Shown one piece after another: positions 1,563-10,651 of a stretch of DNA of 15,014 bases (positions are counted from its first letter, which is position 1; each line of letters starts with the position of its first letter). The stretch is from a virus. The DNA is taken from the UHGV virus genome UHGV-0054899. The stretch is one strand, 5' to 3'. The notes beneath the pieces were generated by a model. The model was not told the DNA's origin. It did no database searches and saw nothing but the letters and a program-made list of their open reading frames with translations. A program made the position numbers and the translations under genes.

Positions 1563-2335
1563 CAATGCAACTGATGGCAGCAATTCAGAACCGTGACGGC
1601 GAGGCGTTTGCCCGGATGTCCGGTAGTTACGACCCCAAAAACGTAATCAACATCGAAGCTGAGAACCTGGTCGATTCGCTGTTTCGCCAACTGAAGCAGA
1701 TCTTCCCGGCGGCATCTCAGACCAACCTGAAGACCGACGCTGACGAGAAGACGGCAAAGCGACAGTGGATCGCCGCATTCTCTGAAAACGGAATACGCAG
1801 CAGAGAACAGCTTTCCGCAGGGGTGAGGCACGCCAGAGCCAGCGAGTCACCTTTCTGGCCTTCCCCTGGGCAATTCATCAAGTGGTGCAAGGATAGCAGT
1901 ACAGTTCTTGGAATTAACCTGTCTGATGTGATGAATGAGTTTCATCGCTACAGCAGAGAAAAAGGCGTTCACACTGGCGGAGCGGAGAGGTTCCCATGGT
2001 CACATCCCGTCATGTACTGGATTATCACAGATACTCGACGGGCCATGTATCAAAGGCAACTTAGCGAAGTTGAAACTGAAAAGTTCGCAGCTAAAAAGCT
2101 CGAGGAATGGGCGCTAAAAGTAGCTGGAGGAGAACAAATCCCACCACCCGTTATGGCTATTGAGTGCAATTCTGATGTCATTCCCGTAACCCATGAGAGC
2201 CGGAATATCGGTTACCACCCTGAAGGAAAAACATTTGGCTGCATGCCTAATGCTGCAACTTTGGGTGCGCTTACTCCAGCGCAGTGGCTATGGGATGAAT
2301 ATCTCAAAGGGAAGGCCGCCGGCCTTATCAGGTGA
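1559..2335 (+). CDS. P: replication protein P-like (helicase loader)
   Basis: GTG start at 1559 with GGAGG 8 nt upstream, overlapping the upstream stop (GTGA); an in-frame ATG lies at 1565. The protein contains …RQWIAAFSENGIRSREQLSAGVRHARASESPFWPSPGQFIKWCK…, which parallels the lambda P segment …RRQWVLAFRENGITTMEQVNAGMRVARRQNRPFLPSPGQFVAWCR… as I recall it. Confidence 0.8.
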   Translation: MTMQLMAAIQNRDGEAFARMSGSYDPKNVINIEAENLVDSLFRQLKQIFPAASQTNLKTDADEKTAKRQWIAAFSENGIRSREQLSAGVRHARASESPFWPSPGQFIKWCKDSSTVLGINLSDVMNEFHRYSREKGVHTGGAERFPWSHPVMYWIITDTRRAMYQRQLSEVETEKFAAKKLEEWALKVAGGEQIPPPVMAIECNSDVIPVTHESRNIGYHPEGKTFGCMPNAATLGALTPAQWLWDEYLKGKAAGLIR

Positions 2336-2340
2336 AGACG

Positions 2341-2748
2341 ATGGACAGCTTAAAGCAACGCATTCTCGACTACGTATCAGCTAACCAGCCAGCCAAGGTT
2401 GACCTGATTTACAAGGAGCTTGGCATCTGCCGTAACCGGTACTACGAAGAGGCTAAGCAACTCAGGTTCATGGGTATGTTGCGAAGCGTTCCGGGTATCG
2501 GTGTATTCACCGGTGAAGATGCTTATCAGCACTGGCTGAAAAGTGGAGGCTACGAAGAAATCAGACGACGCGCTGTCGATGCAAACCTGAGTAGCCAGGA
2601 AGCGAAGGGGATGAAGAAACCGCGTAACATCGACGACCCGAAGATGTTCGCACCATATGACCCGGCGAAAAATGGAGTCGTGGCTGAATTCATGCAGAGC
2701 GATGCGAGAAAGCGGCTGATGATGGTTTACGGGAGGTTAGGAGCATGA
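2341..2748 (+). CDS. hypothetical phage protein (nin-region-like)
   Basis: ATG at 2341 with AGGTGA 8 nt upstream; the track's 2332 start is a GTG overlapping the P stop. 135 aa; stop overlaps the next start (ATGA). No recognisable motif. Confidence 0.55.
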   Translation: MDSLKQRILDYVSANQPAKVDLIYKELGICRNRYYEEAKQLRFMGMLRSVPGIGVFTGEDAYQHWLKSGGYEEIRRRAVDANLSSQEAKGMKKPRNIDDPKMFAPYDPAKNGVVAEFMQSDARKRLMMVYGRLGA

Positions 2749-3044
2749 AAGAGACACGCAACACACGAGAAATCATTGAGCAGGAATATAACGAATTCCC
2801 TGAAACCATCCTCCACGCTGAACTATGCCGCGCATGTGCTCGCGTAGACGGTCGCAGCATCAAGCAGTCACTCAAGGCATTTGCTCTGGCACGTATCGAG
2901 AAGGTTGAGAGCAAGCCACTTAAAGGCGCACTGGAGCAGATGGCATCAAGCATGTTTCCAGAGACAGAGATAGCCCGTATCCGCTCCTGTGTAGGTCGCA
3001 TGGAGTCGGCACTGGTTAAGACATTCGGAGTGAAGCGAGCATGA
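2745..3044 (+). CDS. hypothetical phage protein
   Basis: ATG at 2745 preceded by GGGAGG…AGGAG; translationally coupled to the upstream gene; 99 aa. Confidence 0.55.
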   Translation: MKETRNTREIIEQEYNEFPETILHAELCRACARVDGRSIKQSLKAFALARIEKVESKPLKGALEQMASSMFPETEIARIRSCVGRMESALVKTFGVKRA

Positions 3045-3127
3045 CTGAACCTTACATAGCAGAGCTATCTGCAAGCGTGGCCGTGATAGTCGGCCTTTTT
3101 TATGCGATACGCAAAAACATCGATTAA
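3041..3127 (+). CDS. possible small hydrophobic peptide (28 aa, MTEPYIAELSASVAVIVGLFYAIRKNID)
   Basis: ATG overlaps the upstream stop (ATGA), with GGAG upstream. It is below the track's length cutoff and overlaps a weak hairpin plus T-run (3079-3102), so it may simply be terminator sequence. Confidence 0.25.
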   Translation: MTEPYIAELSASVAVIVGLFYAIRKNID

Positions 3128-3129
3128 CA

Positions 3130-3152
3130 GGCTCGCATCGCGGGCCTTTTTT
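3130..3152 (+). terminator. Rho-independent terminator candidate
   Basis: GGCUCGC-AUC-GCGGGCC stem (7 bp with one G·U pair) followed by UUUUUU. It sits between the replication/nin-like block and the next gene. Confidence 0.5.
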
Positions 3153-3166
3153 ATGAGGGTAGGATT

Positions 3167-3682
3167 ATGACTAATGAATCAAGCGCAAACGCAATCATTG
3201 GCAACACGCTAAGAATTATCGCTTCTGGCGAATACCATCCCGGAGCAGAACTTACTCAAAAGATGGCGTCTTACATCATCGAACTTGAGCAAAAACTCAC
3301 AGACATGGCAGTACAGCTTGCTAACGCCGAGAGCAAGTGCAGGGAGCTGGCGGCGGCAGAGAACAACCTCATTGATAGCGAATGTCATGTTGCTGAACTG
3401 GAGGACGCGCTACGTGATAAACAGGCATTAATTGAAGCTGCAGAGAAGCGCATAGCAGAGCATAACTTTGAAAATCGGTTACTGGCTAATGCTGATCGCG
3501 ATATCAAAGCATTGCGACAGCGCATAGCAGAACTGGAGGCGGGGACGGTGGCAGTAAAGCTATTCGGTGACTTCCAGATTGTCCACTATGGCGGTTCTGA
3601 GGATTACGCGAAAGGTTATATCGACTGCCAGAACAACTACAACAAGGCGCTTGCCGCCGCTGGCATTGGCGTGAAGGGGTAG
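3167..3682 (+). CDS. Ea22-like coiled-coil protein (putative)
   Basis: ATG at 3167 with GAGGGTAGGA upstream. 171 aa with long heptad-like E/A/L/K-rich stretches (…LEQKLTDMAVQLANAESKCRELAAAENNL…ALRQRIAELEAG…), typical of ead/Ea22-like lambdoid proteins. Family call is from memory. Confidence 0.55.
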   Translation: MTNESSANAIIGNTLRIIASGEYHPGAELTQKMASYIIELEQKLTDMAVQLANAESKCRELAAAENNLIDSECHVAELEDALRDKQALIEAAEKRIAEHNFENRLLANADRDIKALRQRIAELEAGTVAVKLFGDFQIVHYGGSEDYAKGYIDCQNNYNKALAAAGIGVKG

Positions 3683-3686
3683 TGAG

Positions 3687-3890
3687 ATGTCAAAGTCACC
3701 AATGAAACTCATGCTACGGGCATGGAACAAAGAGCTTAAAAATCCAGAATGGGGCATGGGCAATCGTAAACACCGCAAAGCTTGTGCTCGTGATTTTGCC
3801 GGAGCCAGCATAGAAACAGATGCTGATATCCCTAACCAAGCCGAAGCAGATGACCGCCTGGCGGAAGAACTTACTTACTGGACGGACTAA
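3687..3890 (+). CDS. hypothetical small phage protein
   Basis: ATG at 3687 with AAGGGG upstream; 67 aa. Confidence 0.5.
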   Translation: MSKSPMKLMLRAWNKELKNPEWGMGNRKHRKACARDFAGASIETDADIPNQAEADDRLAEELTYWTD

Positions 3891-3893
3891 CCC

Positions 3894-4091
3894 ATGACAA
3901 CTAACCACCCGGCGCACGGTCCTGTATCACTCGATCGCCTGCACCAGATAAGCGAAATACTCAGCAAAGCAGCAGCACAAAGCGACGGCGGTAATCTCGG
4001 CTACGCAATGGCTGATGCTGTGAAGGTGATTGATGGGGTTCTGGAGTCGATGGCCCGCGAACAAGTACGCCGTGAACATGCAGCATGGTAA
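3894..4091 (+). CDS. hypothetical protein; probable N-terminal fragment of the downstream MazG-like gene
   Basis: 65-codon ORF ending at TAA 4089-4091. The same reading frame continues open straight into the downstream ORF (see findings). Confidence 0.45.
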   Translation: MTTNHPAHGPVSLDRLHQISEILSKAAAQSDGGNLGYAMADAVKVIDGVLESMAREQVRREHAAW

Positions 4092-4196
4092 CTGGCTACT
4101 TTCGGGGATGTCGGCCCAGTTGGTCCGCTGAAGCACCTTTCCAAAGAAGCGCTCGAGGCCGCTGCGGAACCAGGCGACCTTAGCGAATGGGCTGAC

Positions 4197-4643
4197 ATGC
4201 AGTTCCTGTTATGGGATGCGCAACGTCGTGCCGGTATCAGTGATGAGCAGATTAACCAGGCGATGGTAGAAAAGCTGGCGGTTAACAAACAGCGCAAATG
4301 GCCTGAGCCGAAAGATGGTGAGCCGCGACTGCATATCAAAGAGCAGCCTGCGCCGGTTGTGCCAGAGGTAATGGCGGACCCTGACGAGAGTCAGTATGGC
4401 GGAACATATGATGAGGATTATCAGGCGGAATGCGCATACGTGGAGGGCTGGAACGCCTGCCGCGCCGCCATGCTTCAGGCTGGCAACTCTCCGGTAACTC
4501 CGGATGGTTACGTACTGGTTCCGAAGGAGATTACCTGTGCAATGGACGATGCGGCATGGGAGGCATATCACGAAACTAGATGCATGAGTGATATATGGGC
4601 AGCGTTACTCGCAGTAGCACCGAAGCAGGAGGATGTAAAATGA
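4197..4643 (+). CDS. MazG-like nucleotide pyrophosphohydrolase-like protein (DUF550/DUF551-like), possibly truncated or disrupted
   Basis: First ATG at 4197, but the frame is open from 4092 and the 35 codons upstream (LATFGDVGPVGPLKHLSKEALEAAAEPGDLSEWAD) look like conserved coding sequence. Family call is from recalled prophage nin-region proteins. Confidence 0.55.
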   Translation: MQFLLWDAQRRAGISDEQINQAMVEKLAVNKQRKWPEPKDGEPRLHIKEQPAPVVPEVMADPDESQYGGTYDEDYQAECAYVEGWNACRAAMLQAGNSPVTPDGYVLVPKEITCAMDDAAWEAYHETRCMSDIWAALLAVAPKQEDVK

Positions 4644-4780
4644 AACTATATGCACTGCGTAAAGATTGCGGTCATCAGTGGACAGTTACCGGATCACTGG
4701 TGACATGTCCTAAATGCGGAGGGCGTAGCTTTTCTGTCAGTACAGCACCGCAGCAGGAGGTGAAGCGATGTCGAAACTAA
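4640..4780 (+). CDS. small zinc-ribbon protein (46 aa)
   Basis: ATG at 4640 with AGGAGG 7 nt upstream, overlapping the upstream stop. Two Cys pairs: C-G-H…C-P-K-C-G-G. The track's longer 4595 start lies inside the previous gene and lacks a ribosome-binding site. Confidence 0.5.
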   Translation: MKLYALRKDCGHQWTVTGSLVTCPKCGGRSFSVSTAPQQEVKRCRN

Positions 4781-5022
4781 CTTTCGTCATTGAGTTTGAG
4801 GATGGTAAAGAACCTCCTGTACATGCTCATATGGAAGCGTTCGGCGGCAAGGTTGTTGCAGTGGCCTTCCGTGATGCACTAAGCGAGCAGGAAGAACGTG
4901 AGCAGGTAACAAGCATTTATGAGCCGCTAAACACTATCCGTTGTTTTATCTGTAATGTTCGCCACCCAATCGGCGTTGCTTGTCCGTTTAATACGATTAC
5001 TTCGGCGGTAAGCAATGGCTAA
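4768..5022 (+). CDS. hypothetical phage protein
   Basis: ATG at 4768 with AGGAGG 7 nt upstream; 84 aa. Confidence 0.55.
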   Translation: MSKLTFVIEFEDGKEPPVHAHMEAFGGKVVAVAFRDALSEQEEREQVTSIYEPLNTIRCFICNVRHPIGVACPFNTITSAVSNG

Positions 5023-5353
5023 ATCCGCAGCAGAGCGCAAAGCCGCGCAGCGTGCCCGTCTGGCTGAAGCCGGTAACCGCAAGATGGAATTGCAACTCGA
5101 CGAGCAGGAAATGGAGATGCTGGCGCGAAACTGCGCCGCCCGGCGCCCTGGTCGTGCGACGTATGAAATGGCTGAGTACATCGCGCTGTTGATCCGCCAG
5201 GATGATGCCCGGGTGCGTGGTCGTATCAAGTCAATCAGTGCTAACCGGTGTGGTAAGTGTGGCGATGTATTACCTGTTGAGTCGTGTCCGTGCGACGGGG
5301 ATTCGGCATGCTGGGTTACGCGTGGCTGGCATGAGACTAAATTATCAGTGTGA
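5015..5353 (+). CDS. hypothetical protein with C-terminal Cys cluster (possible zinc-binding regulator)
   Basis: ATG at 5015; 112 aa. C-terminal motif C-G-K-C-G…C-P-C-D…C. Last gene before the terminase operon. Confidence 0.55.
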   Translation: MAKSAAERKAAQRARLAEAGNRKMELQLDEQEMEMLARNCAARRPGRATYEMAEYIALLIRQDDARVRGRIKSISANRCGKCGDVLPVESCPCDGDSACWVTRGWHETKLSV

Positions 5354-5361: not shown

Positions 5362-5384
5362 GATATCTGCAATAAATTGCAATG

Positions 5385-5410
5385 GCCGCCGACTATGGCG
5401 GCTTTGTTTT
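5385..5410 (+). terminator. Rho-independent terminator candidate upstream of the terminase operon
   Basis: GCCGCC-GACTAT-GGCGGC (6-bp GC stem) followed by TTTGTTTT. It lies inside the track's 5382 N-terminal extension, which argues against that start. Confidence 0.55.
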
Positions 5411-5421
5411 GCGTGTTACTA

Positions 5422-5454
5422 TTACCAAAACGGTAATTATTACTTCGGTGGTAA
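5422..5454. promoter_or_regulatory. two adjacent inverted-repeat sites TTACC-N5-GGTAA (5422-5436 perfect; 5440-5454 TTACT-N5-GGTAA), candidate operator or activator site for the late operon
   Basis: Read directly, immediately upstream of the terminase small subunit start. An identical perfect site is at 8655-8669. Confidence 0.4.
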
Positions 5455-5456
5455 CA

Positions 5457-6050
5457 ATGCCCGCAGAACCAAAAGCACCAAAACGCAAATCAACGCAGTA
5501 CAAGCCACTCACAGCGATGCAGGAGGCTTATGCACAGGAATATACCAAATGCCCTGAGAATCAGACTCAGGCGGCGATTAACGCAGGATTCTCGCCTAAT
5601 CCGGCGGCTGTCAAAGCCAGCGTCATGATGCGTGATGAGCGTATCCAGAAACGGATCGCCGAACTGATGGAAGAGCGCAACAAGCGCCTGCGCGTCAGTG
5701 CTGATTATGTGCTGCTCCGTTTGGTGGAAATTGACCAGATGGATGTGATCGATATCCTCAACGACGACGGCACACTGAAGCCGATCCGCGAGTGGCCGAA
5801 GATATGGCGTACCACGCTGAGCGGTTTCGACCTTTCATCGACCATCATGAACATGGACGAGACATCAATCGAGACGATCCTCAAAAAAATCAAATGGCCT
5901 GACAAGGTGAAGAATCTCGAGCTCATCGGCAAGCACGTCGACGTCAACGCGTTCAAAGAGCGCCTGGAGGTTTCAGGCACTGTCACCATTGCCGACCGCA
6001 TGGCGAAGGCTCGCCGTCGCGTGAAAGAGCAGGCTGGTGGTGAAGAATGA
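5457..6050 (+). CDS. terminase small subunit
   Basis: ATG at 5457 after GGTGG. N-terminal region (…LTAMQEAYAQEYTK…NQTQAAINAGFSPNPAAVKASVMMRDERIQKRIAEL…) is typical of terminase small subunits. Stop overlaps the large subunit start (ATGA). Confidence 0.8.
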   Translation: MPAEPKAPKRKSTQYKPLTAMQEAYAQEYTKCPENQTQAAINAGFSPNPAAVKASVMMRDERIQKRIAELMEERNKRLRVSADYVLLRLVEIDQMDVIDILNDDGTLKPIREWPKIWRTTLSGFDLSSTIMNMDETSIETILKKIKWPDKVKNLELIGKHVDVNAFKERLEVSGTVTIADRMAKARRRVKEQAGGEE

Positions 6051-7528
6051 CAGCCGCATCCATGTCGCCGGAAGAACAACTCGTCGAGGATATCGCTGGG
6101 TTCACGTATGACCCGCTTGGCTATTCTCTGTATGCGTTCCCGTGGGGAGAAGAGGGAACGGAGCTGGCGCATGCCACTGGGCCGCGTAAATGGCAGGCCG
6201 ACGCATTCCGCGAGATACGCGATCACCTCCAGAACCCCGTTACCCGCCATCAACCGCTGATGCTGGCGCGCGCATCCGGTCACGGCATCGGTAAATCCGC
6301 TTTCATATCGATGCTGATTAACTGGGGCATGTCCACCTGCGAGGATTGCAAGGTGGTGGTGACCGCCAATACCGACAACCAGCTGCGTACCAAGACATGG
6401 CCGGAAATCATCAAATGGTCCAACCTGGCTATCACCAAAGAGTGGTTCACCTGCACCGCCACCGCGATGTACAGCAACGATCCCGGACACGATAAACGCT
6501 GGCGCGCTGACGCCATTCCGTGGTCTGAGCACAACACCGAGGCATTCGCAGGGCTGCATAACGAGCGTAAGCGCATTATCGTGGTGTTCGACGAAGCGTC
6601 CAACATTGCCGATCTGGTATGGGAGGTTGCCGAGGGTGCGCTGACGGACGAGGACACTGAAATCATCTGGGTGGCGTTCGGGAACCCAACGCGCAACACC
6701 GGGCGTTTCCGCGAATGCTTTCGCAAATACAAGCACCGCTGGAAGTGCGCGCAGATTGACAGTCGCACCGTTGAAGGCACCAACAAGCAGCAGTTGCAGA
6801 AATGGGTGGACGACTACGGAGAGGACAGCGACTTCGTGAAGGTCCGTGTGCGCGGGATCTTCCCTGATGCGTCTGAGAACCAGTTTATCCCATCAGGCCT
6901 GACACAGCCTGCCGTGGGCAGGGTTATCACTCCGGCGCAGGTCCAGCACGCTGCTGTAGTTCTTGGCGTCGACCCGTCTCACCAGGGTAAAGACCCGGCA
7001 GTTATCTACCTTAGGCAAGGGCTGCACTGTAAGAAACTTGGCGAGTGGCAACGAACTACCGACGACGTATTGTTTGCTAAGGTGATTGCCGACTTTGAAG
7101 ACCAGTACCAGGCCGATGCTGTGTTTATCGATTACGGGTACGGGACCGGGCTTAAATCAGTTGGCGATAACTGGGGCCGTAACTGGACCCTGATTCAGTT
7201 CGGCAGCGGTACGGCAGATCCAGAGATGGGCAATAAACGCGGTGAGATGTACAAATCAGCCCGCGATGCGCTGAAGCTTGGGGCGCAACTCGACAGCCAG
7301 AACCTTGCCGATGAGCTGAGTGCGCCGGAGTACAAGGTCAGGCTGAAGGACAGCAGGAAGATTTTGCAGGACAAGGAAGAAGTCAAAGAGTTGCTTGGCA
7401 GATCCCCGAACGATGCCGACGCATACGTGCTGACATATGCCGCTCCTGTGACCAAAAAGCAATTCAACTATGGGCAGCAGCAGAGCCAGCATGGCAAGGC
7501 TCTCACAGAGTACGATCCCTATGCATGA
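6047..7528 (+). CDS. terminase large subunit
   Basis: 493 aa, translationally coupled to the small subunit. Walker A-like SGHGIGKS, Walker B-like IIVVFDEAS, and a C-terminal nuclease-type region (…VLGVDPS…). Confidence 0.9.
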   Translation: MTAASMSPEEQLVEDIAGFTYDPLGYSLYAFPWGEEGTELAHATGPRKWQADAFREIRDHLQNPVTRHQPLMLARASGHGIGKSAFISMLINWGMSTCEDCKVVVTANTDNQLRTKTWPEIIKWSNLAITKEWFTCTATAMYSNDPGHDKRWRADAIPWSEHNTEAFAGLHNERKRIIVVFDEASNIADLVWEVAEGALTDEDTEIIWVAFGNPTRNTGRFRECFRKYKHRWKCAQIDSRTVEGTNKQQLQKWVDDYGEDSDFVKVRVRGIFPDASENQFIPSGLTQPAVGRVITPAQVQHAAVVLGVDPSHQGKDPAVIYLRQGLHCKKLGEWQRTTDDVLFAKVIADFEDQYQADAVFIDYGYGTGLKSVGDNWGRNWTLIQFGSGTADPEMGNKRGEMYKSARDALKLGAQLDSQNLADELSAPEYKVRLKDSRKILQDKEEVKELLGRSPNDADAYVLTYAAPVTKKQFNYGQQQSQHGKALTEYDPYA

Positions 7529-7551
7529 AAAAGCCCGCGCATCGACGGGCT
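7527..7551 (-). terminator. Rho-independent terminator for the minus-strand accessory gene
   Basis: Stem AGCCCG / CGGGCT with an 8-nt loop; on the minus strand it is followed by UUUUU (the + strand AAAAA at 7527-7531). On the + strand there is no T-run after it. Confidence 0.5.
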
Positions 7552-7555
7552 GATT

Positions 7556-7567
7556 GTGACATGTCAC
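7556..7567. repeat. perfect 12-bp palindrome GTGACATGTCAC (copy 2; 14 bp TGTGACATGTCACA at 7555-7568)
   Basis: Read directly; lies between the minus-gene stop (7572-7574) and its terminator, and just after the terminase large subunit stop. Confidence 0.8.
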
Positions 7568-7571
7568 AGCG

Positions 7572-7991
7572 TTACTTAATGGCATCAAATCCAGCGTTGA
7601 TGGCTTCCGCAATATTGGTGGCATTGGTTTTATCGAATTGTCCATTCTGAATAAGTGCCGCATGCAGACATTGTAACTTCATGTTGTATAAGTGTTCGCT
7701 CATGTAATCATCATCACTTTTTTCTTTAGCATAAACAGCGCGAGAAATATCAAACACATTGCCTTTTTCCATTTCAGAACGTTGTGCCGCTATCCAGTCA
7801 TAGCACGTAACGCTAGTGCCATGGTCTTCGCTAAGAGTTAACCCGGCCAGTTTCTCACCCTGAATTACTTCGTAATGCATTTCATTGCCAGCAAAAACGC
7901 CATAAAAAATGCAGTCATCAGCCTGAACGATACGGGAATATTTTAATGGCCATTCATTTAGATACTTAGCCAACATATCAACTGTTTTCAT
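7572..7991 (-). CDS. hypothetical acidic protein of unknown function (139 aa), accessory 'moron' gene
   Basis: Only credible minus-strand gene in the window. Strong Shine-Dalgarno AAGGTGAG ahead of the ATG, own downstream terminator, and visibly lower GC than the flanks. No motif I recognise. Confidence 0.75.
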   Translation of the reverse strand: MKTVDMLAKYLNEWPLKYSRIVQADDCIFYGVFAGNEMHYEVIQGEKLAGLTLSEDHGTSVTCYDWIAAQRSEMEKGNVFDISRAVYAKEKSDDDYMSEHLYNMKLQCLHAALIQNGQFDKTNATNIAEAINAGFDAIK

Positions 7992-8002
7992 AGTCTCACC
8001 TT

Positions 8003-8026
8003 AAAAAAATGCCCACCGAAGTGGGC
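8003..8026 (-). terminator. intrinsic terminator or attenuator hairpin directly upstream of the accessory gene's ribosome-binding site
   Basis: On the minus strand: GCCCAC-UUCG-GUGGGC, then A, then UUUUUUU, running straight into AAGGTGAGACT-ATG. Confidence 0.55.
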
Positions 8027-8654
8027 GAACTGGAAGCAAGGGAGCCTTCCATGGCTTACGGGTTTACAACACAACGTCATCACAATGGCGTTCTGGTGTA
8101 AAAGTGACGGTGGTCAGCATCAAGGGAAACTGCCACCGCCAAAGGCTACACAGCATCGTTCTTATGGGCGCTTCATCACGGTCCTAAGGCGTGATTGGGT
8201 TGTGGTGGCCGGTGCTGAACTCCGGCTTGGCTATGCGACTTGCTAGTTGACACCGGAGTTTCACCGGGGCGAAGGTTTCGCAAATCGTTTATTGGGTCAG
8301 TGCTGGCTTGCAACGCGCTTACTCAACCGACTACAGCCAACGATATCTACTACCCATCAGGTCTTACACTTGCGCATCAGCCTGCGCATTCACCACAACG
8401 GAAAGAGCACTGGCTAACCAGGCTTCACCGACTCCTCACGATTATCGGTTCAGTGCTCTTACCTGTTGCATCCTCGTCTCTTCCGAGGTGTCACACCGTA
8501 TCGCCACGATGGTGAATCGTCTGTCCGTGCTTACCTAACACTGGCTTGCACATTCCGGCTACCCGGCTGGGGAAGTAGCATCAAGGGAACCCATCCGGAC
8601 CGCTGCGGCACATGTGCCATATGCCGTACATCCACTGCGTCACATCAACACCAA
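8027..8654 (-). ncRNA. candidate structured noncoding RNA or long regulatory leader (identity unknown)
   Basis: About 630 bp with no minus-strand ORF of 60 aa or more; the + strand carries only three mutually overlapping ORFs in all three frames with non-protein-like composition. Ends at a minus-strand terminator. Contains GC-rich hairpins, a 12-bp palindrome GGCACATGTGCC (8607-8618) and dispersed short repeats. Strand and function are inferred only. Confidence 0.25.
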
Positions 8655-8669
8655 TTACCTAAAAGGTAA
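8655..8669. promoter_or_regulatory. inverted-repeat site TTACC-TAAAA-GGTAA (third copy of the motif) in an AT-rich putative promoter region
   Basis: Read directly, in the AT-rich stretch 8650-8750 upstream of the structural operon. A TTGACA hexamer sits on the minus strand at 8691-8686. Confidence 0.4.
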
Positions 8670-8759
8670 TATCTGATGTTATAAGTGTCAATAGCCTACG
8701 CTAAATAAATCATATGTGGTTAAATTGGTAATAATTTAATTGCGTACGGAGCTATTGCT

Positions 8760-8966
8760 ATGTGTATCGGCAGCAAGCCATCAGTGCCAGCAGCGCCAGA
8801 AGTACAGGCTGCGCCACAGGAGCAGGATGCAGCAGTCGTCAGTTCTCGTGACGACGAAGAGCGCCGCCGACGTGCAGCAGCAGGCCGCAGTTCCACTCTG
8901 CTGACTGGTGCGCAGGGTGACACATCAACCGCAAACACCAGCGGTAAAACGCTGCTTGGTCAGTAA
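8760..8966 (+). CDS. small protein beginning MCIGSKP…, possible virion protein (T7 gp6.7-like by recollection)
   Basis: ATG at 8760 with GGAG 8 nt upstream; 68 aa, Ala/Pro/charged-rich. Resemblance to T7 gp6.7 (N-terminal MC-x-S-P-K, small size, position ahead of the portal gene) is from memory and weak. Confidence 0.45.
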   Translation: MCIGSKPSVPAAPEVQAAPQEQDAAVVSSRDDEERRRRAAAGRSSTLLTGAQGDTSTANTSGKTLLGQ

Positions 8967-8980
8967 CGGAGTAGGCAGAG

Positions 8981-10651
8981 ATGGCGGAAACCGAAAAAGA
9001 GCGCCTGCTGAAGCAGCTAGCACAGCTGAAGAATGAGCGCACATCGTTCGAATCGCACTGGCGTGATCTGAGTGACTTCATCAATCCGCGCGGTTCCCGC
9101 TTTCTGACGTCTGATGTAAACCGTGATGATCGTCGTAACACTAAGATTGTTGATCCTACCGGCTCAATGGCTCAGCGCATTCTGTCCAGTGGCATGATGT
9201 CAGGCATCACCAGCCCGGCACGTCCGTGGTTCAAACTGGCAACGCCTGACCCTGACATGATGGACTATGGCCCGGTGAAAATCTGGCTGGAAGTCGTGCA
9301 GCGCCGTATGAACGAAGTGTTCAACAAGTCTAACCTGTATCAGTCACTTCCTGTTATGTACGCAAGCCTGGGTACTTTCGGCACCGGCGCTATGGCTGTT
9401 CTGGAAGATGACCAGGACGTGATCCGTACAATGCCTTTCCCTATTGGCAGTTACTATCTGGCAAACAGTCCGCGCGGTAGCGTTGACACCTGCATTCGTC
9501 AGTTCTCCATGACTGTGCGCCAGATGGTGCAGGAATTCGGGCTGGATAACGTCAGTACATCCGTAAAAGGCATGTTGGAAAACGGCACGTATGAAACGTG
9601 GGTGGAGGTTAACCACTGCATCACGCCTAACGTCAACCGCGACAGCGGGAAGATGGACAGCAAGAATAAGCCTTACCGCTCTGTCTATTTCGAAACTGGC
9701 GGTGACGCTGACAAGCTGCTGCGTGAATCCGGTTTCGATGAATTCCCAATCCTGGCTCCGCGCTGGGAAGTGAACGGTGAAGACGTTTACGCCTCATCTT
9801 GCCCTGGTATGTTGGCACTCGGTCAGGTTAAAGCCCTTCAGGTTGAGCAGAAGCGCAAAGCTCAGCTTATCGATAAAGCCACTAACCCGCCGATGGTTGC
9901 CCCGACATCGCTCAAGAATCAGCGTGTTTCCCTGTTGCCTGGCGATGTGACATATCTCGACGTGTTGACCGGTCAGGATGGTTTCAAACCTGCATACCTG
10001 GTTAACCCGAATACTGCCGACCTGCTGGCTGACATTCAGGATACCCGCCAGACCATCAACAGCGCCTACTTCGTTGACCTCTTCATGATGCTGCAAAACA
10101 TCAACACTCGCTCTATGCCGGTGGAAGCGGTGATCGAGATGAAGGAAGAGAAACTGCTGATGCTTGGCCCGGTGCTTGAGCGACTGAATGACGAAGCGCT
10201 TAACCCGCTTATCGATCGCGTGTTCTCAATCATGGCCCGCAAGAACATGTTGCCTGAACCGCCAGACGTTCTTCAGGGTATGCCGCTGCGTATCGAGTAC
10301 ATCTCTGTGATGGCTCAGGCGCAGAAATCTATCGGCCTCACCAGCCTGTCGCAGACAGTTAGCTTTATCGGGCAACTGGCACAGTTCAAACCTGAAGCGC
10401 TCGACAAGCTCGACGTTGATCAGGCTATCGACGCGTTCTCTGAAATGTCAGGCGTATCGCCAACCGTCATCGTTCCGCAAGAGCAGGTACAAGGTATTCG
10501 TGAAGATCGCGCGAAACAGGCTCAGGCAGCACAGGCAATGGCTATGGGTCAGGCGGCAGCGCAGGGAGCCAAGACTCTCAGCGAAACGCAGACCAGCGAC
10601 CCGAGCGCATTAACCGCTATCGCTAATGCAGCAGGAGCACCGCAGCAATGA
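8981..10651 (+). CDS. portal (head-to-tail connector) protein
   Basis: 556 aa, first large gene after terminase. C-terminal Q/A/M-rich tail (…AQAAQAMAMGQAAAQGA…) resembles T7 gp8-type connectors as I recall them. Confidence 0.75.
   Translation: MAETEKERLLKQLAQLKNERTSFESHWRDLSDFINPRGSRFLTSDVNRDDRRNTKIVDPTGSMAQRILSSGMMSGITSPARPWFKLATPDPDMMDYGPVKIWLEVVQRRMNEVFNKSNLYQSLPVMYASLGTFGTGAMAVLEDDQDVIRTMPFPIGSYYLANSPRGSVDTCIRQFSMTVRQMVQEFGLDNVSTSVKGMLENGTYETWVEVNHCITPNVNRDSGKMDSKNKPYRSVYFETGGDADKLLRESGFDEFPILAPRWEVNGEDVYASSCPGMLALGQVKALQVEQKRKAQLIDKATNPPMVAPTSLKNQRVSLLPGDVTYLDVLTGQDGFKPAYLVNPNTADLLADIQDTRQTINSAYFVDLFMMLQNINTRSMPVEAVIEMKEEKLLMLGPVLERLNDEALNPLIDRVFSIMARKNMLPEPPDVLQGMPLRIEYISVMAQAQKSIGLTSLSQTVSFIGQLAQFKPEALDKLDVDQAIDAFSEMSGVSPTVIVPQEQVQGIREDRAKQAQAAQAMAMGQAAAQGAKTLSETQTSDPSALTAIANAAGAPQQ

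Follow-up and report, generated by a model that had tools for sequence, protein, structure and literature searches.

The closest described counterparts of the locus analyzed here are phage loci in which an RNA-only unit and an intrinsic terminator precede a 'moron' gene with little or no promoter of its own. In phage 933W the annotation runs from a tRNA promoter through ileZ-argN-argO to a rho-independent terminator, and stx2A, the first gene of stx2AB, begins 54 nt later. In lambdoid phages the corresponding order is pR', 6S RNA or StxS, tR' and the late genes. Terminated phage leader RNAs can double as small RNAs, as do StxS, lambda 6S RNA and IsrK (PMC7547250), and in the IsrK-orf45-anrP locus of Gifsy-1 a short terminated RNA and a read-through mRNA are produced from one phage promoter (PMC7547250). 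The order of RNA, terminator and small ORF is also that of the type III toxin-antitoxin loci ToxIN, CptIN and TenpIN. Further comparators are the tRNA-like domains of tmRNA and YrlA, mascRNA, the stable RNAs of phage tRNA clusters (species 1 and 2 of T4, rnaC and rnaD) and the RNase P-processed C4/CI RNAs of P1, P7 and P4. Finally, an engineered 'tRNA scaffold' for recombinant RNA has reportedly been described by Ponchon and Dardel.

The DNA considered here (the window, by which we mean the whole stretch of 15,014 nt) belongs to a Uetakevirus, an epsilon15-like phage. Between its large terminase (terL) and gp3 genes there is an ORF-free unit of about 650 nt that ends at a terminator at 8003-8026 (Table 1); the ORF list contains no minus-strand ORF of at least 60 aa in 8027-8700. 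As in the 933W and lambdoid loci, an RNA-only unit is followed by an intrinsic terminator and then by a trailing gene, and in the case of lambda the likeness is literal, since module B of the window's RNA, described below, is itself present downstream of tR'. Unlike those loci, the unit in the window is leftward and isolated between terL and gp3, its control appears to depend on a repressor operator and not on Q, and its terminator abuts the Shine-Dalgarno sequence without a spacer, this Shine-Dalgarno sequence being part of a scaffold that is common to unrelated cargo genes. The locus also resembles that of IsrK in its layout. However, IsrK activates translation of the long form in trans; the window gives no sign of pairing of this kind, and neither its sequence nor an Rfam model links it to IsrK.

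Table 1. Positions of the features discussed in the text, with the basis for each.
Feature	Position	Strand	Basis and remarks
-35 hexamer TTGACA, leftward promoter	8686..8691	-	Sequence reading and comparison of loci
Putative -10 hexamer TACCTT	8663..8668	-	Assigned from its place 17 nt after the -35, within the operator
Palindromic operator ATTACCTTTTAGGTAAT, consensus ATTACC-N5-GGTAAT	8654..8670	.	Epsilon15 annotation
Module A, structured RNA domain of ~165 nt	8466..8632	-	RNAalifold
Loop motif UUCCCUUGAUGCU, copy 1	8577..8589	-	Module A cap; sequence reading
Module B, long helix with variable cap	8396..8468	-	CAAC-AGG-UAAGAGCACUG ... CAGUGCUCUUU-CCG-UUG; RNAalifold
Module C, tRNA-elbow-like scaffold	8199..8399	-	Pairing across 45 distinct scaffolds
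Insert ('cargo') of module C, hypervariable, 145 nt in the window	8227..8371	-	Comparison of units
Module D, 3' domain with four hairpins	8027..8198	-	RNAalifold, 5 Uetakevirus copies
Loop motif UUCCCUUGAUGCU, copy 2	8128-8116		D2 loop; sequence reading
Intrinsic terminator	8003..8026	-	6-bp stem, UUCG loop, A and U7; the feature under study
Shine-Dalgarno AAGGUGA	7996..8002	-	Conserved scaffold element; same in 16/16 junctions, with unrelated ORFs behind
Cargo ORF, 139 aa, PHROG 4846	7572..7991	-	PHROGs, E = 5.7e-87; no function assigned
Second terminator-like hairpin AGCCCGTCGATGCGCGGGCT, then TTTTCATGCA	7524..7551	-	Terminator scan; closes the cassette, before convergent terL

The terminator stem is formed on the minus strand by GCCCAC (8026-8021) and GUGGGC (8016-8011), with five G-C pairs among its 6 bp, and is closed by a UUCG loop (8020-8017). 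It is followed by A 8010, by seven U residues (8009-8003), and then by AAGGUGA (8002-7996), GACU and the ATG (7991-7989). This is exactly the arrangement described in an earlier, sequence-only reading of this DNA, in which a GC stem, a UUCG loop and a 7-U tract were said to run directly into a ribosome-binding site and start codon. Folded alone, the hairpin has an energy of -12.1 kcal/mol and makes up 97% of the ensemble (z = -4.24), and none of 200 shuffles folds as well. A terminator consensus scan calls the site. This match alone proves little, because generic terminator-like matches are common in the window (24, vs 14.5 +/- 3.3 in shuffles), but the longest U run among all 24 is the one at 8003-8026. 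Comparison with related phages is more informative. The junction hairpin-A-U6-7-AAGGUGA-N4-9-AUG is present in 16 loci, the window included, and its stem takes only two forms, GCCCAC/GUGGGC in nine and GCCCGG/CCGGGC in the other seven. Both are fully paired and they amount to a double compensatory change, with no unpaired intermediate among the 16 loci. The GenBank record of epsilon15 annotates the homologous hairpin as a rho-independent terminator. On sequence grounds, we regard the hairpin as a real, conserved intrinsic terminator of the ordinary type. The 11 nt that separate the U tract from the ATG are too few for a promoter, as had been noted before, and a promoter scan of module D was also empty. 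The earlier proposal that the gene can be reached by read-through only would therefore seem to be correct.

Transcription would begin about 650 nt upstream of the hairpin. The -35 hexamer is the same, and lies at a constant distance from the operator, in 12 of 13 Uetakevirus-type loci, the remaining one having TTGACT, and the architecture TTGACA-N15-ATTACC-N5-GGTAAY is kept in 13 loci despite the divergence of the spacer sequence. The putative -10 hexamer matches the consensus at only three of six positions, and for this reason a simple promoter scan missed the promoter; the predicted transcription start is near 8656. The operator motif is annotated 'repressor; lysogeny' at the same position in epsilon15, in which three copies lie beside the repressor gene and the motif is found also before terS and the tailspike gene. 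The conserved promoter and operator, together with a stretch down to the hairpin that lacks ORFs of at least 60 aa and contains several helices with compensatory changes, bear out the suggestion that an upstream minus-strand noncoding RNA ends at the hairpin, insofar as sequence comparison can do so.

This RNA is made up of four structured modules, labelled A to D, which are widespread among enterobacterial phages. Module A contains the hairpin CGGCAUAUGGCACAUGUGCCG, a stem GGUCCGG/CCGGG with a variable cap, and the conserved GAAUGUGCAAG; RNAalifold on eight homologues gives 36 predicted pairs, with compensatory changes at 12. Copies of the module are found downstream of the cI gene in mEp390, mEp460 and Stx2a_1447, and another is next to tRNA-Ile/dnaB on an E. 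coli plasmid of 95 kb; this plasmid carries tRNA-Asn, -Thr and -Ile and a dnaB homologue, and we take it to be P1-like. Module B, for which 11 of 14 predicted pairs show compensatory changes (RNAalifold, 12 diverse copies), adjoins the 5' end of module C in the window and the 5' end of a tRNA in sister phages. It is present as well just after tR' in the late leaders of phage lambda and of a P22-like prophage. Of 5426 complete E. coli genomes, 2371 (44%) contain matches to parts of the 729-nt query. Module D, with an identity of 74-98% across the genus, comprises hairpins D1 (8195-8175), D2 (8140-8106, followed by ACUUUU), D3 (~8103-8064) and D4 (8050-8032). RNAalifold also pairs the D1 loop (CGCCUUAGGA, 8190-8181) with the U tract and the Shine-Dalgarno sequence, and all of these positions are invariant, so that their comparison speaks neither for nor against the pairing, which, if real, would add translational control. 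Rfam, searched at the gathering score and at E up to 10 with the window and 11 related loci, gave nothing over modules A-D, and its only matches are sub-threshold and driven by the terminator (RyhB, E 0.72; isrB, E 9.6; DicF). No description of the modules was found in the literature, searched by sequence string and by topic, and a published catalogue of 10,006 unnamed candidate phage RNAs (PMC10690425) could include them.

The two copies of the 13-nt loop motif listed in Table 1 mark a difference from epsilon15, in which a single merged copy remains and the intervening 460 nt are missing. The two pieces into which the epsilon15 BLAST match falls overlap by exactly these 13 nt. An insertion with target-site duplication was considered for the repeats, but a deletion in epsilon15 between the copies of the motif explains them better. 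Epsilon15 is without modules B and C and without much of A, yet it still has an ORF.

Module C is made up of a closing stem (8399-8391/8207-8199) and two hairpins, H1 (8387-8372, loop GGCUGA) and H2 (8226-8208, loop AGUUCAGCA), whose loops pair with each other as GCUGA:UCAGC to form a kissing loop, with GUCGA:UCGAC and GCCGA:UCGGC as variants. In an alignment of 45 distinct scaffolds, 94.8% of cells are paired and eight pairs are changed on both sides. These values were reached by none of 500 shuffles, and slid controls pair at 26-51%. The presence of G-U pairs makes the structure strand-specific. The 7-pair core of the closing stem (columns 3-9) is 99% paired and all nine pairs 90.9%; we count the stem as 5-7 bp, because the two outermost pairs are weak, and the base of helix B overlaps with pairs 3-4. 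In the same 45 scaffolds H1 is 96.9% paired, H2 97.3%, and the loop-loop helix 97.3% with two covarying pairs. In module C, an acceptor-like stem thus runs on into a T-like stem of 5 bp, and the loop of this T-like arm is contacted by that of a D-like arm, features that the module shares with the tRNA-like domains listed above. It differs from them in that its elbow is a 5-bp Watson-Crick kissing interaction between loops of 6 and 9 nt and not a T-loop/D-loop contact, and in that a CCA lies within 6 nt of the stem in only 35 of 69 units (51%), mostly at an offset of about 2 nt (ACCCA in the window). It also escapes detection by ARAGORN and by the Rfam models for tRNA, tmRNA and YrlA, and indeed has no match anywhere in Rfam. 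ARAGORN and Rfam RF00005 find no tRNA in the window, and module C does not give the cloverleaf of a tRNA gene.

A further difference from the tRNA-like domains is the insert, which occupies the place of the anticodon arm, as does the foreign RNA in the engineered tRNA scaffold. This insert is hypervariable: among 69 distinct units it ranges from 6 to 168 nt and falls into 43 classes without any common 12-mer. (A whole-genome pattern scan gave many chance matches in unrelated phyla, and only matches confirmed by the covariance model at more than 40 bits were kept.) The minimal module C, of 62 nt, carries UAGAUA alone (locus L044). The cargo in locus L135 is related to that of the window and differs from it by compensating changes in sub-helices. 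The anti-sRNAs AgvB and AsxR were considered for the CA-rich end of module C (CACCACAAC); these are 51-60-nt RNAs from convergent genes downstream of pR', they have Rfam families of their own, and neither family matches here. Likewise, the 'M3 RNA' of phi80 was considered as an old name for the scaffold, but the phi80 record annotates M3 as an oop homologue.

Comparison of the window with its sister phages bears directly on what module C is. It sits exactly where SPN9TCW, phiV10 and locus L139 carry tRNA-Arg(UCU), as identified by ARAGORN, and the same flanks bracket the tRNA-Arg(tct) and module C (5' ...CAGYGUU/G... and 3' ...ACCA/GAAUCACGCC, the slash marking the boundary). On the P1-like plasmid L013, B-C units stand in tandem behind tRNA-Asn and tRNA-Thr. 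The tRNA-Arg at the same position in sister phages marks the RNA as a tRNA-type cassette, a point that is absent from the sequence-only reading. By analogy, T4 species 1 and 2 and the C4/CI RNAs may be comparable, as non-tRNA stable RNAs that are co-transcribed and co-processed with phage tRNAs or leaders, but there is no sequence or model similarity, and the Rfam C4 model has no match in the window but does match elsewhere in L003. As a tentative proposal, to which we give somewhat less than even weight, B and C together would constitute an undescribed and widespread class of phage RNA. This would be a natural 'tRNA scaffold', in which a long processing helix is followed by an elbow mimic (acceptor-like stem, D- and T-like hairpins and 5-bp kissing lock) that holds hypervariable cargo in the place of the anticodon arm. 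It would occupy tRNA positions in temperate phages of Enterobacterales and Aeromonas (Uetakeviruses, the late leaders and immunity regions of lambdoid phages, and P1-like plasmids), and would hijack the machinery of tRNA maturation and stability. The fast-changing cargo would then be functional, for example as a decoy, sponge or guide in conflicts between phage and host or between phages.

The trailing ORF has no Pfam or PADLOC family, its 108 homologues are all 'hypothetical', and those examined occupy the same slot in Uetakevirus-like prophages. Nothing informative was returned by a PDB sequence search, nor by Foldseek of an AF2 model (pLDDT 79) against PDB and BFVD. At least six unrelated ORF families lie behind the identical U7-AAGGUGA junction. 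In L139 the ORF family of the window accompanies tRNA-Arg and in L142 a variant module C, and in L135 the RNA cargo type of the window occurs with a different ORF. Among these relatives, RNA and ORF assort independently. The ribosome-binding site belongs to the conserved scaffold and not to the gene, something that the earlier reading had not recognized, and unrelated cargo genes may therefore plug into a ready-made expression slot.

The observed anatomy of the unit, its conservation and covariation, its equivalence to a tRNA and the independence of RNA and ORF are in our judgment probably best explained by a cassette for stable RNA in which the terminator has a second role, that of holding down the expression of an exchangeable cargo gene reached by read-through. 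What follows on timing, on processing enzymes and on the extent of read-through is inferred. Transcription would start from TTGACA-N17-TACCTT, and because the -10 lies inside the operator of the phage repressor, the unit is probably silent in the lysogen and becomes active upon induction or infection. Its transcript (~650 nt) would be a chain of modules: the structured domain A, helix B, scaffold C with its 145-nt insert, and the four hairpins of D with the terminator. Module B, a helix of ~17-20 bp, is a plausible RNase III processing stem because of its location at the 5' edge of the tRNA position. The hairpin with U7 would act as the constitutive intrinsic terminator of this leftward Uetakevirus unit, and most transcripts would end at 8003-8005, which would become the 3' end of the stable RNAs. 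AAGGUGA would serve as a constant docking point, with different cargo genes brought in behind it by recombination, and the cargo gene, lacking a promoter of its own, would be translated only from read-through transcripts. In effect, the terminator would work like a valve, keeping expression of the gene behind it low while the RNA unit in front is strongly transcribed. Such a valve can be dispensed with, since a Klebsiella relative is without both the terminator and the AAGGUGA junction.

A hairpin followed by U7 is the classic Hfq-binding 3' module of small RNAs. It may be asked whether the feature is mainly such a 3' end, belonging to a small RNA cut from module D, with the gene incidental. 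We consider this unlikely as the principal explanation, but it has points in its favor: two hairpins precede a terminator with seven U residues, conservation across the genus is highest in the last 130 nt of the unit, a CU-rich loop (UCCCUUG) is present three times, and there is a precedent in StxS, which is cut from the pR'-tR' RNA. The sole weak Rfam likenesses, RyhB and isrB, are Hfq-dependent, but these matches fall far short of the threshold and are due mostly to the terminator itself. In addition, the UCCCUU loop is not kept in phiV10, and there is no complementarity of 12 nt or more between the RNA and the rest of the 15-kb window, and complementary 11-mers are fewer than expected by chance. 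This reading is compatible with a stable-RNA cassette and its terminator valve and does not exclude it.

The placement of a strong terminator right before a gene could mean that an antitermination factor is needed, and none was recognized in the window. According to this alternative the terminator would be a checkpoint, lifted by phage antitermination of the Q, N or put type, so that the cargo is fully expressed at a defined stage, on the model of stx2 in 933W or of S behind tR' in lambda. In 933W the tRNA-distal terminator is read through into stx2, and module B and a relative of module C are present in the Q-dependent late leaders of lambda and of the P22-like prophage. Moreover, the rightward operon of the window contains tandem plus-strand terminators (3079-3104 and 3129-3156), which suggests that terminator read-through is part of the phage programme. 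Against this, no Q, N or other antiterminator family is found in the nine small plus-strand ORFs scanned (2332-5353), within the 15 kb of the genome that the window covers, and no similarity is seen between the leftward promoter region and that of the plus-strand terminators. We regard regulated antitermination as improbable here, and continue to favor a constitutive valve.

The sequence-only reading had also raised the possibility of a conditional attenuator or riboswitch expression platform, and of alternative antiterminator pairings. The leader ahead of the terminator is indeed long and structured, and an 18-codon ORF (8053-7996) runs through the hairpin to stop at the UGA within the Shine-Dalgarno sequence, as might be expected for translation-coupled attenuation. 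However, in each of the four contexts folded, the MFE and the centroid structure both contain the terminator hairpin, and no competing helix is seen in these local folds. Even at E up to 10 there is no Rfam riboswitch, aptamer or leader match. The small ORF lacks a Shine-Dalgarno sequence, its start codon is not conserved (ACG in phiV10 and L139), and in Tyrion its frame differs. Furthermore, the upstream modules are swapped freely, even for a tRNA, and the terminator is constant, which is unlike an aptamer coupled to its platform. We think conditional attenuation very improbable. Still more remote is a type III toxin-antitoxin locus of RNA antitoxin, terminator and protein toxin, for although the phage-borne order of RNA, terminator and small ORF was read correctly, tandem repeats are absent, as had also been noted (in 7500-8800 TRF finds only a 23-nt coding-region repeat), the ORF has no structural match to a ToxN/AbiQ-type toxin and belongs to no other defence family, the RNA and ORF are not co-inherited, and epsilon15 still has an ORF although modules B and C and much of A are gone.

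As a whole, the fusion of terminator and ribosome-binding site is a tidy case of a known phage design, in which an RNA unit is followed by a terminator valve and a trailing cargo gene, and the more interesting part of the locus is the upstream RNA, not the terminator. The same few structured modules are met in the window, in lambda (late leader), in Stx and mEp phages (next to cI) and on a P1-like plasmid (tRNA region). If the tRNA-shaped frame of module C is truly a natural device for stable, processed RNAs with interchangeable inserts, it would present a new class of phage noncoding RNA for study, and would provide a direct and testable reason for sequences in lambda that have been unexplained since lambda was sequenced.

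The minus-strand junction ahead of the 139-aa ORF reads GUUC-GCCCAC-UUCG-GUGGGC-A-UUUUUUU-AAGGUGAGACU-AUG, so that a hairpin and U tract run directly into the ribosome-binding site, as the sequence-only reading had described. A consensus terminator scan calls this site (8003-8026), and since the same scan finds 24 terminator-like sites in the window, compared with 14.5 +/- 3.3 in shuffled sequences, a scan match alone is weak evidence. The site is raised above chance by its U run, which is the longest among the 24, by the predicted stability of the isolated hairpin (-12.1 kcal/mol, 97% of the ensemble, z = -4.2) and by its conservation, with compensatory change, across 16 loci. In these loci the order hairpin, A, U6-7, AAGGUGA, 4-9 nt, AUG is present, and the stem takes the form GCCCAC/GUGGGC in nine and GCCCGG/CCGGGC in seven, never mixed. 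The GenBank record of epsilon15 already annotates the homologous hairpin as a rho-independent terminator. The feature is confirmed at the positions given.

The window represents a Uetakevirus (epsilon15-like), either as a genome or as a prophage. TerS and TerL are encoded on the plus strand, ending at 7528, and a leftward cassette lies in the interval from terL to gp3. It consists of a promoter, a stretch of about 650 nt free of ORFs of 60 aa or more, the terminator, the ORF and, at its end, another terminator-like hairpin. The arrangement TTGACA-N15-ATTACC-N5-GGTAAY is conserved in 13 loci despite complete divergence of the 15-nt spacer, which gives good grounds for regarding the promoter-operator pair as functional. 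In epsilon15, where the record annotates the same palindrome as "repressor; lysogeny", three copies lie beside the repressor gene and more precede terS and the tailspike gene. The cassette is probably repressed in the lysogen and would fire on induction. In the window, the mechanically called terS ORF (5382-6050) contains a terminator-like hairpin (5384-5403, plus strand) and two operator-like sites (5422-5436 and 5440-5454); judging from epsilon15, terS probably starts near 5457. Just upstream, a 112-aa gene (5015-5353; PHROG 536, "transcriptional regulator") is a candidate for a late regulator.

Features of the cassette and related elements, in window coordinates unless a locus handle (L) is given
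Feature	Position	Strand	Remarks
Terminator stem and loop	8026-8011	-	sequence
A + U7 tract	8010-8003	-	sequence
Shine-Dalgarno sequence AAGGUGA	8002-7996	-	sequence
ORF start codon AUG	7991-7989	-	sequence
Cargo ORF	7991-7572	-	139 aa
Second terminator-like hairpin	7551-7532	-	closes cassette
-35 TTGACA	8691-8686	-	17-nt spacer to -10
Putative -10 TACCTT	8668-8663	-	inside palindrome
Palindrome (operator) ATTACCTTTTAGGTAAT	8670-8654		contains -10
Module A	8632-8466	-	structured RNA, ~165 nt
Module A copies elsewhere	L004 2495-2670; L013 2910-3100; L139 2483-2661
Module B	8468-8396	-	~17-20-bp helix, variable cap
Module B copies	L015 about 3000-3075; L014 about 2935-3015		phage lambda; P22-like prophage
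Module C	8399-8199	-	closing stem, H1, insert, H2
Module C closing stem			GUUGUGGUG/CACCACAAC
Module C hairpin H1			GCGCA-GGCUGA-UGCGC
Module C hairpin H2			GCCGG-AGUUCAGCA-CCGGC; directly contiguous with 3' strand of closing stem
Module C-type scaffold loci	window 8199-8399 (-); L003, L005, L006, L008, L010-L014, L017-L136
Module D	8198-8027	-	four hairpins, then terminator
gp3	8760-8966		after TerL
Portal gene	8981-10651		after gp3
Tandem intrinsic terminators	3079-3104 and 3129-3156	+	rightward operon, between replication genes and downstream small genes

Comparison of the window with related phages delimited four successive modules, A to D, in the RNA that ends at the terminator. For module A, RNAalifold predicts 36 pairs from eight homologues, 12 of them compensatory. 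In mEp390, mEp460 and an Stx2a phage this module is located downstream of the cI repressor gene. A further copy, next to tRNA-Ile and dnaB, is carried by L013, an E. coli plasmid of 95 kb that encodes tRNA-Asn, tRNA-Thr, tRNA-Ile and a dnaB homologue and is taken to be P1-like. In module B, 11 of 14 predicted pairs covary among 12 diverse copies. It borders tRNAs or tRNA-like elements on their 5' side, and the late leaders of phage lambda (the DE3 prophage of BL21) and a P22-like prophage contain it directly behind tR'; that it may be an RNase III site is only a lead. Its 3' arm, GUGCUCUUU, resembles the core of the rrn/nut boxA, probably by coincidence because the arm is base-paired.

Module C has the architecture of a tRNA minus its anticodon arm, in which an acceptor-like stem is stacked on a T-like arm of 5 bp and accompanied by a D-like arm and a contact at the elbow. 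This contact is a 5-bp kissing interaction between the complementary H1 and H2 loops (GCUGA:UCAGC). A pattern scan of IMG/VR, in which 16 of the 28 5'-side bases were fixed, retrieved more than 120 loci with about 90 distinct copies. Among 45 distinct scaffolds, 94.8% of cells are paired and eight pairs have changed on both sides, values reached by 0 of 500 shuffles, while slid controls pair at 26-51%. Covariation is seen in the loop-loop helix (GUCGA:UCGAC and GCCGA:UCGGC), in H1 (GCGCA to GCACA) and in H2 (GCCGG to GUCGG, GUUGG, GACGG or GCAGG), and the structure is strand-specific, its G-U pairs assigning it to the strand that has the same orientation as the ORF. In the closing stem the outermost two pairs are weak and the next two overlap the base of helix B, so that this stem is best given as 5-7 bp. 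Between H1 and H2 is an insert of 6-168 nt, falling into 43 classes without a shared 12-mer among 69 units; the smallest natural module (L044, a related locus) is 62 nt. CCA follows the stem within 6 nt in only 51% of units, mostly at a 2-nt offset, and the window has ACCCA. At the corresponding position SPN9TCW, phiV10 and an E. coli prophage (L139) carry tRNA-Arg(UCU) between the same flanks, helix B preceding it and ...ACCA|GAAUCACGCC... following it, and module C thus occupies a tRNA position. On the P1-like plasmid (L013 836-1740), tRNA-Asn and tRNA-Thr are followed by three to four B-C units in tandem. There, the first module B has a canonical T-arm sequence, GAGGGUUCGAAUCCCUA, in its cap, and the commonest RNA cargo, of 79 nt, is shared with mEp460 and Stx2a phages, where it is downstream of cI.

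In module D, hairpin D2 is followed by ACUUUU. RNAalifold pairs the D1 loop CGCCUUAGGA (8190-8181) with the U tract and Shine-Dalgarno sequence UUUUAAGGUG (7996-8007); because all these positions are invariant in five aligned sequences, covariation neither backs nor excludes this pairing, which is unsupported. A G/U-rich stretch within a predicted hairpin, GUGAUGACGUUGUGUUGUAAAC (8064-8090, minus strand), resembles the G/U-rich R1 seed of GcvB; epsilon15 has C at three of its positions and the Rfam GcvB model does not match it. Epsilon15 lacks modules B, C and much of A, and its sequence passes directly from the equivalent of window position 8577 to that of 8115 through one copy of the 13-nt motif UUCCCUUGAUGCU. 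This motif occurs twice in the window (8577-8589 and 8116-8128, minus strand), in two hairpin loops 460 nt apart, and the epsilon15 state looks like a deletion by recombination between the copies. A related UCCCUUG is found in the loop of hairpin 8032-8050. These CU-rich loops look like anti-Shine-Dalgarno seeds and are not conserved in phiV10.

The ORF is a member of PHROG 4846, a family to which no function has been assigned. Pfam, PADLOC and PDB contain no relative of it, its AF2 model (pLDDT 79) gave no informative match, and its 108 homologues are all "hypothetical", those examined sharing its slot in Uetakevirus-like prophages. At least six unrelated ORFs stand behind the identical U7-AAGGUGA junction in relatives. 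In L139 the window's ORF family accompanies tRNA-Arg and in another relative (L142) a variant module C, and the window's RNA cargo type is found with a different ORF in a third (L135); RNA and protein thus do not form a cognate pair. The ribosome-binding site is part of the RNA scaffold and provides a docking site for interchangeable cargo genes.

The analysis shows that the locus combines a conserved promoter-operator pair, a structured, tRNA-type non-coding transcript, a strong and conserved terminator with a conserved Shine-Dalgarno sequence directly behind it, swappable ORFs and a closing terminator. We propose that the derepressed promoter would yield large amounts of RNA, with processing directed by helix B and the tRNA-like fold, for which RNase III and RNase P are plausible enzymes. 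The majority of transcripts would stop at 8003-8005, an end that would also provide the kind of 3' module seen in Hfq-binding small RNAs. A smaller fraction would read through, allowing translation of the ORF from AAGGUGA, and the U-rich spacer would, if anything, favor initiation. In this way the terminator would serve as a valve, separating a strongly expressed RNA unit from a trailing gene expressed at a low level. Phage 933W offers the nearest worked example, its record listing a tRNA promoter, ileZ-argN-argO, a rho-independent terminator and, 54 nt later, stx2A; the terminated phage leaders StxS, lambda 6S RNA and IsrK likewise coexist with read-through mRNAs (PMC7547250). The valve is not universal, since Klebsiella phage ST11-OXA245phi3.2 (L010 3060-3240) keeps modules A-D and is missing the final terminator and AAGGUGA junction, its ORF sitting behind another ribosome-binding site.

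Read-through might be passive or helped by a phage factor. No antiterminator family was recognized within the 15-kb window, and the tandem plus-strand terminators at 3079-3156 hint that the phage does read through terminators. The second of these terminators resembles the one after argO in 933W (AGGCTCGC...GCGGGCCTTTTTTAT). The suggestion that the hairpin is a conditional attenuator or riboswitch platform is not supported, since folding revealed no alternative pairing that competes with it, no riboswitch aptamer matched, a small ORF across it (8053-7996) is not conserved, and the upstream modules are swapped among phages while the terminator is unchanged. A type III toxin-antitoxin locus, suggested by the layout, fails on three counts: the tandem repeats are absent, as the sequence-only reading had itself stated, the ORF matches no toxin family, and RNA and ORF are not inherited together.

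Part of a 729-nt query matches 2371 of 5426 complete E. coli genomes, mostly through module A, with 530 matching places on plasmids. Matches confirmed by covariance model, in a scan of one genome per species, fall in Enterobacterales, Aeromonas and one short contig labelled Martelella alba (an alphaproteobacterium). No Rfam 15 family matches any module in the window or in 11 related loci, and the minimal form of module C is likewise unmatched at E up to 10. In mEp460 (L003 129-317), matches to the Rfam C4 antisense RNA (83.6 bits) and isrK (67 bits) lie beside Rha/antirepressor genes, about 2.3 kb from the module A-C region. Searches of the literature by sequence string and topic found no description of the modular RNA, especially of a tRNA-elbow scaffold with a hypervariable insert, and a bulk catalogue of unnamed candidate phage RNAs (PMC10690425) might include it. 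The terminator itself is ordinary: both it and the layout are of a familiar type, and the record of a relative already annotates its homologue. With somewhat less than even confidence, we suggest that the locus may mark a genuinely new class of scaffolded cargo RNAs.
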